IMG/VR virus record: IMGVR_UViG_3300019742_000001 | Direction: 5' to 3' (one strand) | Length of the DNA stretch: 64,000 nucleotides | Source of the DNA: a virus | Taxonomy: Duplodnaviria > Caudoviricetes | Shown here: positions 33,715 through 39,689 of the stretch, piece by piece | Position numbering within the stretch: position 1 is the stretch's first letter | Layout of the letters: the number at the start of each line of letters is the position of its first letter | Translations under genes and position numbers: made by a program | Notes under the pieces: model-generated | Databases searched by the model: none | What the model saw: only the letters and a program-made list of their open reading frames with translations | What the model was told of the DNA's origin: nothing

Positions 33715-35460
33715 TTACATCATTCCTATACTCACACCGTACCCTTCGTACGCTTCTTCATCTCTAAGTGTCTGTTCTAAATATTCTTTTTCAGACTGAC
33801 CTTCTGAGATCAAATCACTACCATCAAGACTAATACCTTGGTTACCCAATGAACTGAAATTAGCAAACTTTCTACGAATCAAACCAAGACTCATCTTTGA
33901 CATTGCTGTAACATAATCAAGAATCCAATCTTCGTCATACATTGCCTCTTCAACATCTTTCTCAAAAGGTGTTGCTGATGTATAACTCACAACAATATCA
34001 TCACCAACATTTAATATTAGATTCCCTGATCCATCAACACCATCTAACGCCAATCCATCCCACGAAACAATAGTAGAATCCTCTAACCTAAAATCAATCC
34101 CATAAACACGATCAAACGCACCAACAGTGATTTTCATCCCATCACCAACCGATACTGGATCTTCTGTCTCTAATGACTTATTATCAATCTCTTCTTGTGT
34201 TAATTTTCTATTCTCTATTCTTGTCGTATACTGTCTTGTTACACTCTTATTAGCCTTAGAGTTGTTTGGTCTACGACTCCGAACAGCAACATATGTGATA
34301 ATAATTTCATCACCTATTCCTAACACCCCATCAAGTCCAAGATCTTTCCACGTCAATATTTTCTTGTCATTCGTTTCCATTTTGAAATCTTCTCCAAAAT
34401 TATGAACGATACCACCAGCAGAAACAGTCACGTTGTCATCCCATACAGGCCAAGACAATGTAACCTTACCAGTGTCAATATGATTTTGATTAATTCTATA
34501 TTGTTCAACTTCCTTTGAAGTCGATGTAACATTTGTCCATTCGTCTGGGTAATATTCTGACTCAAACAATACAGGATATGAAATTGATACTTCATCACCT
34601 ATAACCAATTGACCATCTAACCCCAACTCAGACCACGTAAGAACACGTCTATTCGTGTACAGTTGATCAAAGTCAACAAACTTTGTAGTAGTTATTCCAT
34701 TTACAGTTAATTTAATATCAGATTGTACATTGGTATCAAACTTATCACTGTAATCAATACAAGGTGTGTGTTTCAACACCAACGACTTATTCAATATATT
34801 ATTAGTAGTGATTGTTACATCCTCTACTACCGTTTTAACTTCCTTGAGTACATCCTTCCATTCTGGTTTATATGTCGGCAGAGTAGATCCCTGTAACACA
34901 TATGATCGTAATAATACATATCCCGGAGAATCAAAGACATATTCCTTCGGTAACCCTGTGTCATCATCATTTCCCCACCTATAAACCATACTCTCATTCA
35001 ATGGTGGTGCTGGATTAATCTCAAGTTGATTTGTTGATCTATGGTATTTCCAATTATATCTGGATGGTGTATATTTTTCTAATGTCTTTAGGAAATCCAA
35101 TGCTATATGATAACTTACCAAATCAGGTCCACCACTTATCATGTTCCCAAACATACCTTGTCCAAACATATAGTTCTCTATTGTGAACAGGGTATTAATA
35201 CCACCACTACGAATCGCATGATCATCATACTCAATAACCTCACAAACCCCAGCAGGCAAATCATATAAGGTTTTTCCTCCTTGTAACATAATCGTAAAGT
35301 ATGCTTCTTGTGTCGCGTTACCAATCGCCCACTTGATCCATTTCTGTCTGGCATAATCAATGTGCTCGCTTATCTGGTCATCACACATTTCAACCTTGAC
35401 CATCGGTTCACCTAAACGATTACGAACTTTTTGTATTAATTGACTTCTTGAGATCGCCAT
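33715..35460 (-). CDS. gp13: Neck protein gp13 with three inserted repeat domains
   Basis: RLGEPMVKVEM.DDQI N-terminus and WILDYVTAMSK...GISLDG C-terminus; 581 aa. Confidence 0.92.
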   Translation of the reverse strand: MAISRSQLIQKVRNRLGEPMVKVEMCDDQISEHIDYARQKWIKWAIGNATQEAYFTIMLQGGKTLYDLPAGVCEVIEYDDHAIRSGGINTLFTIENYMFGQGMFGNMISGGPDLVSYHIALDFLKTLEKYTPSRYNWKYHRSTNQLEINPAPPLNESMVYRWGNDDDTGLPKEYVFDSPGYVLLRSYVLQGSTLPTYKPEWKDVLKEVKTVVEDVTITTNNILNKSLVLKHTPCIDYSDKFDTNVQSDIKLTVNGITTTKFVDFDQLYTNRRVLTWSELGLDGQLVIGDEVSISYPVLFESEYYPDEWTNVTSTSKEVEQYRINQNHIDTGKVTLSWPVWDDNVTVSAGGIVHNFGEDFKMETNDKKILTWKDLGLDGVLGIGDEIIITYVAVRSRRPNNSKANKSVTRQYTTRIENRKLTQEEIDNKSLETEDPVSVGDGMKITVGAFDRVYGIDFRLEDSTIVSWDGLALDGVDGSGNLILNVGDDIVVSYTSATPFEKDVEEAMYDEDWILDYVTAMSKMSLGLIRRKFANFSSLGNQGISLDGSDLISEGQSEKEYLEQTLRDEEAYEGYGVSIGMM

Positions 35461-35780
35461 TATTCAGATCCTCCATCACCATTATAATTAGGGTCAACAT
35501 CTGCCTTATTTGGTATTTTATCAAGGACTTCTTGTAGATCCGTATTAATAGACTCACCTAATTTCTGTGACATCTTTTGTATCTTCTCTTTTAAATTTAT
35601 AATGTTCTTTTTTAAATTAACAATGCCTTCTTTCTGTCTCCTACGTCTTTCGTTATCCTCATCAGGCTTTTCCCCCTTTGCATACTCCAAATCACCCAGA
35701 GCAACATTCAAATCGAAAATAGCCTTCTTGTATTCTCTAACCATTTCATAATCTTCTTTTATATATCCAAAAAATCTCAT
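35460..35780 (-). CDS. Small coiled-coil hypothetical protein (possible internal head protein)
   Basis: MRFFGYIKE leader; SD GAGGT; late promoter upstream. Confidence 0.72.
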   Translation of the reverse strand: MRFFGYIKEDYEMVREYKKAIFDLNVALGDLEYAKGEKPDEDNERRRRQKEGIVNLKKNIINLKEKIQKMSQKLGESINTDLQEVLDKIPNKADVDPNYNGDGGSE

Positions 35781-35795
35781 ATTTACACCTCAATG

Positions 35796-35802
35796 ATATT
35801 TA
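35796..35802 (-). promoter_or_regulatory. Late promoter ATAAATA
   Basis: Intergenic tatttat, immediately after the terL-C stop. Confidence 0.6.
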
Positions 35803-36885
35803 TCATTTACTGGCCAACCAAGACCAATCCTCTTCCATTGCACCATCCCCAAAATCTGCCAGAACTCCCCACGCCTCATCCTCATTCTCTTCTGCGACAA
35901 ATTGATATGATTCATCAAACACTTCTTGTTCTAATACAAATATTGCCCAGTACAATGCAGATACAAGGTCATCAGCGATATTAACACCAGCATACCTACC
36001 GTTACCTACATCTTGAAAGTCGGCTAGTTGTTCAACGGTTCTTGGGTCAATAATCTCAACACATTTATCTTCAAGTATCTTTTTCATCAAAAGAACTGCC
36101 AGTGTTTTTGATTTTGTTGTAGCTCGTATACCCAAATCTCGTTCTTTACTACCTGTATTTATAAGATTTTCGTTCTCGTATTCCCACCACAGTCTATTTA
36201 CTACCGGAGCACCCTCTCCATTATTCTCACACATTATATGAGCATCATTATAATAGTATGAAGTTCGGTTAACAATTGACGCAAAACTGTATACATCTGT
36301 ATAGTTATCTTCCCATACAGCAACCTGTGTCATCGTTACTGGTGTGATACTATCAATCCTAAGTATCTGAATAACTGATGAGTTTTCTCCTGTACCTTTG
36401 GCTGTATCAACTCCCATTACATAAGTACAACCAGACTTTGGTTTCTCCCAAATTCTGAACTTACCTAACATATCAAGGAACTCTGGCTCTTTTCTTCGTT
36501 TAAATAATCTCTCAATACAAACAGAATCTATAACTGTATTACTTGAACCGATAAACTCACAATTGTGGTGAACGAAACCATCACCGTAATACACATCACC
36601 ACCAGTGACACCCAATAGATCATATACATCTGACCCACCAAGATTAATTATCTTTTTTATCTTGACCTCGCCATAATGTCTATGTATGATGGTATCGTTA
36701 ACAGATAGGTCATCCGCAAACACTTCACCAGAAAGAGTGACAAATCGGTGACCAACAGAAACTTCACAATACAATCCATTGTCACATTCAAATCTATAAC
36801 CCTCTTTTTCCAACTTCTGTACACCAACAAAACTTTGAAATCCTGTAGGTGTCAACACTTTATATTTTGTATTTCCTTTCAACAT
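35803..36885 (-). CDS. gp17: Terminase large subunit, C-terminal nuclease half, preceded by a 108-aa split-intein C-fragment (36885..36562)
   Basis: IntC ends VHHN, then C-EFIGSSNTVI; nuclease motifs MGVDTAKG, CENNG and DDLVSAL. Confidence 0.95.
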   Translation of the reverse strand: MLKGNTKYKVLTPTGFQSFVGVQKLEKEGYRFECDNGLYCEVSVGHRFVTLSGEVFADDLSVNDTIIHRHYGEVKIKKIINLGGSDVYDLLGVTGGDVYYGDGFVHHNCEFIGSSNTVIDSVCIERLFKRRKEPEFLDMLGKFRIWEKPKSGCTYVMGVDTAKGTGENSSVIQILRIDSITPVTMTQVAVWEDNYTDVYSFASIVNRTSYYYNDAHIMCENNGEGAPVVNRLWWEYENENLINTGSKERDLGIRATTKSKTLAVLLMKKILEDKCVEIIDPRTVEQLADFQDVGNGRYAGVNIADDLVSALYWAIFVLEQEVFDESYQFVAEENEDEAWGVLADFGDGAMEEDWSWLASK

Positions 36886-37510
36886 TTTTCCACACCTTAC
36901 CCTTTATGATCCGTTCAATTTGTTGTGGTGTAACACCATATTCACCTGCAAACTTCAAACTGAACGCCCTAATGTATGACATTGGTCTTCCATTCTTCAT
37001 GACTTGACCAACACCTTCTATATATGGCTGGTCTTCAAACATTTCAATGATTTGTATAACAATTGATTCTGTCAACTTTGTATTTGGTGGAAGAATCCCC
37101 TTACGAGTATCACACCACTTTTTACGCTGTTCTTCGGTGTGATTACATCCTTTAAATGGGATACCATCACGTTCCACTCTCTTCTTTGCTGACTCACTCA
37201 TCTTCTGTCTTGATTCTTCTGTATAAATATATCCTCTGGTTGTAAAATCATGACAAAGATGGTTACCCTTACCGTCAATTGATTCATTCAATCCATTATT
37301 GTAAGTATCATACAACTCTATATAATATTCCTCTCTGACACCAATATGAGAATAATCATCACTTCTTTCTAATATATCAAATTCAAATGAAAATCCCAAG
37401 AACCTATCTGATCTGGAATGGGCTGTCATTCTTCGTTTCAACCCTTTGTCAAATGTTGTTCCTATATAAAGTTGACCATCACTTCTGGTTATTTTATAAA
37501 CTATGTACAT
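36860..37510 (-). mobile_element. Free-standing GIY-YIG homing endonuclease (NUMOD3-like and HTH C-terminus)
   Basis: YIVYKIT...LYIGTT, EEYYIELY...GLN; HTEEQRKK motif; start moved to ATG 37510, which has SD GGAGG. Confidence 0.9.
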
Positions 37511-37530
37511 AATTTCCTCCATATATACAG

Positions 37531-37538
37531 TATTTATA
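37531..37538 (-). promoter_or_regulatory. Late promoter TATAAATA for the endonuclease and IntC-terL-C
   Basis: Exact T4 late consensus in the 32-nt gap after terL-N. Confidence 0.8.
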
Positions 37539-37553
37539 AAATCCTATGAATTG

Positions 37554-38444
37554 TCAACCGAAATTATCATACAGATCCGAAATCTTTATGTCCTGTATAA
37601 TTCCTGTCGATTCATCCTTTATTGTCACCAAAGAATTTTCACCCAAGCAACCAAACTCTTGATTAAATTTGACTTTACCAAGGTTAGACATCTGTTCTGC
37701 CGCCCACTCTTCATCCCTTCCGGGAACTGCACGATAATCAAAACGAGCGTGTTTAAATGTATTCTTACCTTCTTCCGCCTTTGAATAAATTTCATGGAAC
37801 TTATTATACAATCCATTTGGTGTGGAAATTATAATAATCTTTGATTCTTTTGACGCTGAAATTGTTGGGTAGTTTGATGCCCAAAATTCATCTGCTTTCC
37901 ATGAAGGTTCAACGAAAGCAAACTCATCACAAATCAACATTCCCATCGGCTCACCACGAAATGAATCTTTTGATGTCGCCGCAATATAAATCTTTGTATG
38001 GTTGTCAAACTCTATGGTAGTCTGTGCCCATCCCGGAACTCCGGGTTTTAACCAAACTGGTAATAATTCATACATGTATTTCAGTCGTGCCAAAAAGTTC
38101 TTTGCGGCATCAGCTTTGTTGGATACGATACCAATATTCTTATGACTGTGAAAACATGCAAACCATAATGCGTATGCAGCAACAATGGTTGATTTACCTG
38201 ACTGTCGTGATAACAAACATACATTAAAACGATTGTCTATAAAGTTTTGTATTAGTTCTCTCTGATAGTCGTATGGTTGAAATGTTTCAACACCACTATC
38301 TTGACTAACTATTTTTATATAATGACTAATAAAGTATAATACATCATTCTTACACCTATTAAGTTCTCTAACTTCCGTTGGAGTATAATCATATTCCAAA
38401 TTAGGAGCTTTTACATAGTCATCATATTTGACGTTACCACCAAT
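37554..38444 (-). CDS. gp17: Terminase large subunit, N-terminal ATPase half, ending in a 31-aa split-intein N-fragment (37649..37557)
   Basis: Walker A SRQSGKST, Walker B LICDEFAF, coupling motif ISTPNG; ends FNQEFG|CLGENSLV...DLYDNFG*. Start uncertain: TTG 38399 in the track, ATT 38444 proposed here. Confidence 0.93.
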   Translation of the reverse strand: MGGNVKYDDYVKAPNLEYDYTPTEVRELNRCKNDVLYFISHYIKIVSQDSGVETFQPYDYQRELIQNFIDNRFNVCLLSRQSGKSTIVAAYALWFACFHSHKNIGIVSNKADAAKNFLARLKYMYELLPVWLKPGVPGWAQTTIEFDNHTKIYIAATSKDSFRGEPMGMLICDEFAFVEPSWKADEFWASNYPTISASKESKIIIISTPNGLYNKFHEIYSKAEEGKNTFKHARFDYRAVPGRDEEWAAEQMSNLGKVKFNQEFGCLGENSLVTIKDESTGIIQDIKISDLYDNFG

Positions 38445-38460
38445 AACACACCTTCCCTAA

Positions 38461-38494
38461 AATGGGTGACCCCTGTATTTCAGGATCACCCATT
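38461..38494 (-). terminator. Stem-loop after phoH, within the terL leader
   Basis: aatgggtga...tcacccatt stem with a short U-run on the minus strand. Confidence 0.7.
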
Positions 38495-38501
38495 CACATT
38501 T

Positions 38502-38509
38502 TATTTATA
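38502..38509 (-). promoter_or_regulatory. Late promoter TATAAATA upstream of terL
   Basis: Exact consensus overlapping the phoH stop codon. Confidence 0.65.
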
Positions 38510-39689
38510 AACCTGTCTCTCTAACCATATCGGCTATTGGACCTCTTGATTTGTTTCCACCAAGGACAACATGTCCATAGTTAGGTTGTCCTTTGAATAA
38601 TCTAACCATCCAATTCAATCCATTATTCTCTGCATTCAAATGAATATTATCAATCTGTCGTACATCTCCTGTACAAATAACTTTTACATTATCCCCCATA
38701 CGAGAAAGAACCGTTCTCATTTCATCTCGTCCAAGGTTCTGAACCTCATCAATCAACACAATTGCATCATCAATGTTCATACCCCGTAAAAAGTTTATAG
38801 GTAACATTTCAACTGCCTTATGATTCAGTTCCAACTTGTTTGTCTCTACATCTTCCCATGCTCTGTTAGCTGGTCTAAGATCGTGTAATTTTTCCATTAA
38901 ATCCTGAATAGGTCTAAAATATGGATACATTTTATCACTGACATCTCCGGGTAAGAACCCAAGTTCATTACCTATTTCGATGTTTGCTTTAAATATAAAA
39001 ATCTTCTTGTATTTCTTTTTTTCAAATACCTGATCAAACATTGATGCTAGTGTGATAAAGGTCTTACCGAATCCTGCCTCTGATTGTATCGTCACTAAAT
39101 CAATCTCTGGGTCTGTAATTAGTTCTATGGCGGCTTTCTGATACTGTGTCCTTGGTGATACCTTCCATACAGTATTTTCGCCAACTGCTGACTCCTCTCC
39201 ATACTTGTTATTGAAATATAGTTTCCCTTCATTCCAATAAAAACAGTTCTTTTCTAATTGTTCTCCCTCATCAACATTAACAAACCCCGTATATCGTTGT
39301 GATTCTGATTGAAATGGGTTACTATCTCTAAACTCTTCTGATTCAATACCTAATTTCTGTGCCTTAAATCTTAGAAGATTATCGTTTGTAACAAAGATAG
39401 CATCTGTAATCTTATCTTGGTTTGATTGGATCTCTCGTAGAATCGAATTATCGGGTGATTCGTGTTTTACCCCGTTATGTATAATTGTTACGTATTCAAA
39501 ATTTTCTCTGATTACATTTATTGCTCTTGTAACTTGATGTCTTTTCTTTTGGTTTCCTTTTAGTTTATCTAACTCTTCTATAACAGTAGCAGGAATGTAT
39601 ATATTGTTCTCTTCTCCATTCCTTAAAATTTCAATGCAATTTTCATTATCCAGTAACACGTTAGTGTCAAGAACGTAATTTTTTTTCAT
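38505..39689 (-). CDS. phoH: PIN-domain PhoH-family ATPase (PhoH2/YlaK-like)
   Basis: N-terminal YVLDTNVLL...VIEELD PIN motif; AGFGKT, ELGFLPG, RGMNI, DEVQN, GDVRQID and SRGPI motifs. Confidence 0.93.
   Translation of the reverse strand: MKKNYVLDTNVLLDNENCIEILRNGEENNIYIPATVIEELDKLKGNQKKRHQVTRAINVIRENFEYVTIIHNGVKHESPDNSILREIQSNQDKITDAIFVTNDNLLRFKAQKLGIESEEFRDSNPFQSESQRYTGFVNVDEGEQLEKNCFYWNEGKLYFNNKYGEESAVGENTVWKVSPRTQYQKAAIELITDPEIDLVTIQSEAGFGKTFITLASMFDQVFEKKKYKKIFIFKANIEIGNELGFLPGDVSDKMYPYFRPIQDLMEKLHDLRPANRAWEDVETNKLELNHKAVEMLPINFLRGMNIDDAIVLIDEVQNLGRDEMRTVLSRMGDNVKVICTGDVRQIDNIHLNAENNGLNWMVRLFKGQPNYGHVVLGGNKSRGPIADMVRETGL

Follow-up and report, generated by a model that had tools for sequence, protein, structure and literature searches.

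How can a phage make a working large terminase subunit when the gene for that subunit is broken into separate open reading frames (ORFs)? This question is raised by a locus in IMG/VR record IMGVR_UViG_3300019742_000001, a 64,000-nucleotide stretch of viral DNA (Caudoviricetes) from microbial-mat metagenomes, referred to here as the window. Three ORFs lie on the minus strand within positions 35803-38444, each in another frame: the N-terminal part of the large terminase (TerL-N) followed by a short N-terminal intein fragment (IntN), a homing endonuclease gene, and a long C-terminal intein fragment (IntC) followed by the rest of the terminase (TerL-C). As the three frames differ, stop-codon read-through is unable to join the ORFs. 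We read the locus as a fractured TerL gene of an uncultured T4-like myovirus, interrupted by a split intein around a GIY-YIG gene, and we put the probability of this reading at roughly 0.88.

The two terminase halves and the split intein

An earlier note on the window, written from its letters without database searches, had described a TerL-N ending in KFNQEFG and followed by an IntN of 31 amino acids (aa), and a separate ORF in which a 108-aa IntC (...VHHN) is followed by CEFIGSS. All its strings and coordinates were present on the minus strand, and both halves were recovered where it had placed them (Table 1). ORF 37554..38399 encodes 281 aa from a TTG codon, and its frame is open upstream to 38456. 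Its C-terminus reads ...KFNQEFG, then CLGENSLVTIKDESTGIIQDIKISDLYDNFG, then TGA. ORF 35803..36885 (360 aa) begins with MLKGNTKYKVLTPTGFQSF; its residue 108 is the last of ...GFVHHN, and CEFIGSSNTV... comes next. Between them, ORF 36860..37522 encodes 220 aa, or 216 aa from its second ATG (37510), and its 3' end overlaps the IntC ATG by 26 nucleotides (nt). Two extein halves were found on one strand and in order, each with a split-intein half, and an endonuclease ORF stood between them. This is the arrangement of the fractured genes defined by Dassa et al. 2009, mainly in phages (PMC2677866).

The exteins were assigned by comparison with Pfam and the PDB. TerL-N matched Pfam Terminase_6N (E 2.3e-20) and the T4/RB49 gp17 structures 3ezk/3cpe (E about 1e-43). 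The part of ORF 35803..36885 after residue 108 matched the RB49/T4 gp17 nuclease domain 3c6a (E 4.9e-16), and TerL-C scored 21.1 bits with Pfam Terminase_6C, just under the cut-off of 22.6 bits. Since one half matches the gp17 ATPase and the other its nuclease, the break lies at the ATPase/nuclease domain boundary. The best cultured TerL relatives were T4-like cyanophages, at about 46% identity; a blastn search of the region against cultured phages gave no match.

When the 31-aa and 108-aa segments were deleted and their flanks joined, the result was exactly the QEFG-CEFIGSS of uninterrupted relatives (hyphens in such strings mark the splice boundary). One of these relatives, L004, has a single 520-aa TerL reading ...KVKFQQEFGCEFIGSSNTVIDSVC..., with a C-extein 78% identical to that of the window, and shares with the window the gene order PhoH-TerL-105 aa gene. 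QEFGCEFIGS or QEFGCEFLGS occurred in at least 12 further uninterrupted proteins, and the spliced junction predicted in the earlier note is the very sequence that these relatives carry unbroken. Compared with the C-halves of uninterrupted TerL proteins, the C-extein showed 78-88% identity, with P0013 as the most similar (88%). Counted from an ATT start, the predicted spliced product has 265 + 252 = 517 aa, within the 515-521 aa of uninterrupted relatives, and its junction peptide would read ...FNQEFGCEFIGSS....

Searches with the intein halves led to a consensus intein of the TerL family. IntC alone had as its best PDB match the 'Consensus engineered intein CatC' (6dsl_B, E 1.6e-9), aligned from the first residue through HN-CE, and a profile of 30 IntC relatives matched CatC at E 6e-25, followed by gp41-1 (1.8e-13), VidaL and DnaE. 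An AlphaFold (AF2) model of IntC, with a predicted local distance difference test score (pLDDT) of 89.3, also had 6dsl_B as its top structural match (TM 0.82/0.80, 35% identity), with other inteins next. For IntN, a short query of 38 aa that included seven extein residues found CatN (6dsl_A) as the best PDB match, with 13/32 residues identical and E 0.17; the alignment places EFG-C...GIIQDI...DLY against EFE-A...GIIQKI...DLY. IntN was further aligned with the IntN of four relatives (L001, L017, L019 and L020) and with the N-terminal part of the contiguous intein in P0028.

The catalytic set of a class 1 intein was complete, comprising Cys1, block B H46, block F D89, H107-N108 and Cys+1. H46, D89, H107, N108 and C+1 were invariant in 30 relatives, down to about 30% identity. 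In a library clustered at 50% identity, IntC had 245 representative matches at E up to 0.001. Among the best 150 of these 245, near-full matches lay at the protein N-terminus, which is the split form, in 118 of 171 cases, and most N-terminal matches were then followed by C-x-F-(L/I)-G.

Two groups of matches need separate mention. The top representative match, P0143 (3796 aa, 27 stretches), was rejected as a summed-repeat artefact; it is an InlB B-repeat protein and holds no intein. In P0170, P0211, P0231, P0242, P0251 and P0255 the IntC match was internal and was preceded by nuclease-like sequence, with no IntN. These proteins may be real endonuclease-IntC fusions, or they may be gene-calling artefacts of overlapping ORFs.

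The start codon of terL is probably ATT 38444 and not TTG 38399, as judged from N-terminal alignments. The residues before the TTG (GGNVKYDDYVKAPN) aligned with the ATG-started N-termini MGGNV.../MAGNV... of relatives, and the 15 codons before it (IGGNVKYDDYVKAPN) matched, residue for residue, the MGGNVKYDD.../MAGNVRYDD... starts of L017, L004 and several proteins. GGAAGGTG is located 4 nt before ATT 38444. Further upstream of this ATT, at about 38461-38494, is a strong hairpin (-22.4 kcal/mol, z -3.9) with UUUU after it, and above the hairpin lies a copy of TATAAATA at 38502-38509. Hairpins are found at the same place in L017 and L004.

Table 1. Positions in the window of the features of the interrupted terL locus.
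Feature	Position	Strand	Details
TerL-N + 31-aa IntN	37554-38444	minus	first ORF as a whole, from ATT 38444
TerL N-extein (ATPase domain)	37650..38444	minus	265 aa from ATT 38444, 250 aa from TTG 38399
IntN, 31 aa	37557..37649	minus	C1...DLYDNFG; block A and helix alpha-1
TGA stop of IntN	37554-37556	minus	
TATAAATA, T4-type late promoter match	37531..37538	minus	within the 43-nt gap from IntN stop to endonuclease start
GGAGG Shine-Dalgarno	37516..37520	minus	5 nt before ATG 37510; read from sequence
Free-standing GIY-YIG homing endonuclease gene, 216 aa	36860..37510	minus	catalytic domain N-terminal, NUMOD3 motif, helical domain C-terminal
IntC, 108 aa	36562..36885	minus	blocks B (S43-x-x-H46), F (D86-V-Y-D89-L), G (H107-N108)
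TerL C-extein (nuclease domain), 252 aa + stop	35803..36561	minus	starts at Cys+1 (CEFIGSS)

The neighbouring genes are a small-terminase-like gene, a PIN-PhoH gene, terL, a 106-aa gene and a gene for a gp13-type neck protein. The C-half protein was found, identical, on contigs of up to 239,651 bases. The neck protein of the window (33715-35460, minus) has 581 aa, and the L013 version has 282 aa. As the L013 protein matches only the N- and C-terminal parts of the window protein, the latter contains a large internal insertion.

The endonuclease gene and its putative start signals

The protein encoded between the halves matched the PHROG homing endonuclease family phrog_314 (E 1.4e-18). The family of 21 proteins to which it belongs keeps the IVY (GIY) and YIG motifs, with Y5, Y15, G17, R27, H31, E60 and N75 conserved, and 16 of the 21 members matched PF01541 (GIY-YIG). 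PDB sequence searches with the endonuclease, as a single sequence or as a profile, gave nothing significant. In its AF2 model (pLDDT 82), the three best PDB fold matches were all the catalytic domain of I-TevI (1ln0/1mk0), with probability 1.0, TMt 0.64-0.65 and a root-mean-square deviation of 2.6-2.9 A. The modelled fold identifies the catalytic domain as GIY-YIG of the I-TevI type. The free-standing GIY-YIG gene that the earlier note had placed between the halves is borne out by family motifs, by the Pfam matches of relatives and by fold.

Two ATG codons lie in frame at the start of this gene. The GGAGG serves ATG 37510, and the endonuclease is therefore probably 216 aa long (MYIVYK...) and not 220 aa; gene callers differed between two assemblies, with 216 aa in one and 220 aa in the other. 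GGAGG before a MYIVYK-type start was also present in L001, L017 and L020. In the equivalent gap of these three relatives, TATAAATA was exact in L017 and L020 and had one mismatch in L001.

The gene had also been credited with its own promoter and Shine-Dalgarno sequence. A GGAGG and the TATAAATA motif are both present in the 43-nt gap and recur in three relatives; enrichment of the motif in the window was rejected as evidence for a promoter, with the count at chance level. The weight of TATAAATA as a promoter comes from its being kept in the same gap of three relatives, which gives moderate support to the idea that the endonuclease gene brought a late promoter with it. Scans for sigma-70 promoters and terminators were uninformative. 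At the other end of the gene, a Shine-Dalgarno-like AAGGTG precedes the IntC ATG within the last codons of the endonuclease, and translational coupling of TerL-C to the endonuclease gene is plausible.

A separate history of the endonuclease was considered and rejected. Identities to L001/L017/L020 were 75/69/44% for the endonuclease, 83/71/55% for the exteins and 75/55/31% for IntC. The endonuclease values roughly track those of the exteins and IntC, with no sign of a separate recent transfer independent of the intein.

States of the site and competing readings

Five states were found at this one TerL site among relatives. The site has no intein in L004, P0013, P0015, P0018-20 and others. P0028 contains a contiguous 133-aa mini-intein, in which a short linker, RNKKRN, spans the position of the break in the window intein. 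The intein is split, with a GIY-YIG gene between its halves, in the window, L001, L017 and L020, and a Vsr-like (MTES_1575-type) nuclease gene takes the place of the GIY-YIG gene in L002 and L018. In L019 the intein is split with a 1-nt gap and no nuclease. The window layout recurs with intact ORFs in relatives that are 80% (L001), 65% (L017) and 47% (L020) identical over the IntC/TerL-C protein. The intein is absent from the nearest extein relative (88%) and present in relatives at 82-84%. Such presence/absence polymorphism among close relatives bears the signature of an actively mobile cassette.

Other sites in TerL were occupied as well. In L019 (1-4592), TerL is in at least three pieces with three inteins. 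One, at the Walker B site, is atypically split and accompanied by a Vsr-like (MTES_1575) nuclease gene; another is a contiguous LAGLIDADG intein, which lies before TPNGLY and apparently ends in His-Gln; and the third is the window-type split intein, its halves 1 nt apart and without a nuclease. Besides the window-type split intein, L020 (1-3514) contains one of the contiguous LAGLIDADG kind at the P-loop (...SGK-...HN-TTT), and a LAGLIDADG match was also present in its neighbouring SpoVR-like gene. The P-loop site of L013 (719-2365) is occupied by an atypically split intein, and a Vsr-like nuclease gene lies upstream. We regard TerL as an intein hot spot in this phage group.

Could the break be a product of assembly, in a gene that is truly continuous, or the mark of a decaying pseudogene in a defective phage? 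The sequence is a metagenome assembly, checked by contigs and not by raw reads. Contigs of four runs nevertheless covered 35700-38500 with 0 differences and no gap, and in run X4, which is not flagged as a possible source of the window and may be independent, one contig spanned 37008-38500. The identical C-half protein was present on seven contigs, separate assemblies called the same 281, 216-220 and 360-aa genes, and the layout with intact ORFs recurs in relatives at 47-80% identity. The single continuous ORF that the earlier note had named as fatal to its reading did not appear in the contigs of the four runs. Against L001, the proportions of nonsynonymous and synonymous differences (pN/pS) were 0.17/0.61 for IntN, 0.15/0.56 for IntC, 0.15/0.73 for the endonuclease and 0.13/0.64 for the C-extein. 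The ratio of nonsynonymous to synonymous rates (dN/dS) was, as a rough value, about 0.15 (IntN), 0.16 (IntC), 0.06 (endonuclease) and 0.10 (exteins). These values point to purifying selection on all parts, IntN, IntC, endonuclease and exteins alike, and a pseudogene is opposed by a pN far below pS. We give almost no credence to an artefact or a pseudogene.

Purifying selection on both intein halves also bears on another reading, in which the halves do not splice, TerL-N and TerL-C form a non-covalent two-subunit terminase, and the intein fragments act as dimerisation tags. A break at the gp17 domain boundary would suit such an enzyme, and there is a precedent in Aeh1 nrdA, which is described, where it is cited in PMC2677866, as endonuclease-fractured and functional in pieces without splicing. 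The window, however, keeps C1, the His of block B, the Asp of block F, the His-Asn pair and Cys+1, the IntC residues of this set and Cys+1 are invariant across 30 relatives, and the closest characterised relatives do splice. We consider a non-covalent terminase improbable, although less so than an artefact. Introns are the typical home of genes for GIY-YIG endonucleases such as I-TevI. A third reading accordingly places the endonuclease in a self-splicing group I intron, and the spliced mRNA would then encode a contiguous (cis) intein, as P0028 has at the same site. Rfam gave no match at E up to 1 over 35600-38700, and no group I intron was found there. Non-coding sequence amounts to only 43 nt upstream of the endonuclease ORF, with none downstream, where the ORF overlaps IntC by 26 nt, and a group I intron is therefore very unlikely. 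In addition, the IntC ORFs of all relatives start with their own Met at the equivalent position, and 118 of the 171 near-full IntC matches lie at the N-terminus, as given above.

Several points weigh against a fractured, trans-spliced TerL gene. The run data are Logan contigs, and three of the four runs may be those from which the window itself was assembled. Synonymous sites are near saturation, which makes the dN/dS values rough. In Pfam, the endonuclease of the window matched NUMOD3 only and fell below the GIY-YIG threshold. TATAAATA was not enriched in the window (12 found vs 10.8 expected), and no RNA run containing the region was found. Finally, we infer splicing and DNA cleavage by the window proteins from homology.

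Proposed splicing and comparison with known systems

The fractured-gene reading suggests the following course of events. A mini-intein at the TerL ATPase/nuclease boundary (QEFG-CEF) would have been split after its first helix by the free-standing GIY-YIG gene, and the three separate ORFs observed would yield three proteins, TerL-N-IntN, the endonuclease and IntC-TerL-C. The short IntN would dock into the nearly complete IntC and complete the HINT fold. Class 1 trans-splicing could then proceed through a Cys1 thioester, trans-thioesterification by Cys+1, cyclisation of Asn108 and an S-to-N acyl shift, giving a covalent TerL of about 517 aa, ...KFNQEFG-CEFIGSS..., with the junction observed in uninterrupted relatives. 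The endonuclease would be dispensable for splicing and would spread or keep the cassette by cutting cassette-free alleles in co-infection. What it cuts in nature may be an intein allele without a nuclease gene, and not the intein-less terL junction. The endonuclease gene appears to bring with it the TATAAATA late-promoter-like motif and a Shine-Dalgarno sequence, and its 3' overlap may couple the expression of TerL-C.

A bolder scheme can be built on this. By supplying a late promoter and translational coupling (the 26-nt overlap and AAGGTG) for the essential TerL-C, the endonuclease cassette may have protected itself against loss; the GIY-YIG and Vsr-like families, which are unrelated, may have captured the same intra-intein site independently; and the clade may display a natural series of the fractured-gene life cycle, empty, contiguous, split with nuclease and split without. 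We offer this combination as speculation and rather doubt that it holds as a whole.

On the reading of a split intein in TerL, an essential phage packaging motor would depend on protein trans-splicing. The window adds a natural atypical split intein with Cys1/Cys+1 and a 31-aa IntN that can be made synthetically. At only about 38-40% identity to Cat, it is a candidate labelling tool, perhaps without cross-reactivity with Cat. L004 (intein-less), P0028 (contiguous intein) and L019 (split, no endonuclease) are natural alleles that could serve as candidate endonuclease substrates. The current understanding of split inteins is unchanged by this intein.

That fractured genes with intervening endonucleases were already known, as the earlier note had stated, is confirmed by Dassa et al. 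2009 (PMC2677866), where a gp17-like terminase from Lake Gatun is the single case with an unusual break point. The fractured genes in that study differ in locus and phage from the one described here, and the relatives of the window add five states at one site. The endonuclease resembles the I-TevI/Seg-type GIY-YIG enzymes of T4-like phages in having an N-terminal catalytic domain, NUMOD3 and a C-terminal helical DNA-binding-like domain, and in being free-standing with its own putative start signals. It differs from them in that its catalytic domain is only 22-26% identical and that its gene is not in an intron.

Among cultured phages, the only records with a tblastn match to the IntC of the window were the Campylobacter Fletchervirus phages CP39, PC5 and vB_Cj_QDYZ, at 35% identity. 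In CP39 (MH107028.1; L021/L022), and also in PC5 and vB_Cj_QDYZ, TerL is encoded as two genes on opposite strands. The N-half ends in ...LIFIDE-CVAGDTKITVRNKKTGVIEDITMEELYNRIG and a stop, and the C-half begins with a 100-aa IntC (...FVSHN-CAFIDKW); the annotation of the CP39 record reads only 'terminase subunit'. By sequence, the intein of the Fletchervirus TerL is atypically split and lies at the Walker B site. It is like that of the window in its short IntN (31 aa by alignment) and long IntC, and differs in its site (...IDE-CAF...), in halves that are about 24 kb apart and in having no endonuclease between them.

The closest likeness is to the TerL inteins named in the earlier note. The TerL inteins AceL-TerL and GOS-TerL are split in the atypical way (Thiel 2014; Bachmann and Mootz 2015), and the consensus of the AceL/GOS family was engineered as Cat-TerL (PDB 6DSL; Stevens 2017), as cited in PMC11766414 and PMC13014065; the same two papers review trans-splicing activity for AceL-TerL, GOS-TerL and Cat. 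The earlier note had listed Cat-TerL among its comparison inteins, correctly as to family although not as a natural intein. Cat (6DSL) served as the proxy for the family in our alignments, and AceL and GOS were compared by description only. The family was delimited by an IntN of 15-37 aa, an IntC of about 100-115 aa, and a break after helix alpha-1, named the S2 site (PMC13014065), and not in the endonuclease-insertion loop. IntN/IntC lengths are 31/108 in the window, 25/104 in AceL, 37/115 in GOS and 30/104 in Cat. All three share with the window a TerL host, the site EF(G/E)-CE(F) and the S2 break after helix alpha-1, and AceL and Cat also have Cys1/Cys+1 as in the window intein. The IntN of the window, which ends ...DLYDNFG, aligned with CatN through ...DLYQR, and its IntC aligned with CatC from the first residue. 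The Cat chains have EFE before and CE after the intein, and the window has QEFG-C...HN-CEFIGSS. Counted on these alignments, identity of the window intein is about 38% with CatC and about 40% with CatN. It differs from AceL, GOS and Cat also in lying on a long phage contig with the endonuclease and neighbours intact, and not on a short metagenome fragment. The alignment to Cat that the earlier note had proposed gave the best match in both sequence and fold, and its comparison of the short-IntN/long-IntC layout with AceL-TerL and GOS-TerL agrees in site, split point, lengths and Cat homology. On sequence grounds, the intein of the window is a distinct natural member of the known AceL/GOS/Cat family and not a new kind.

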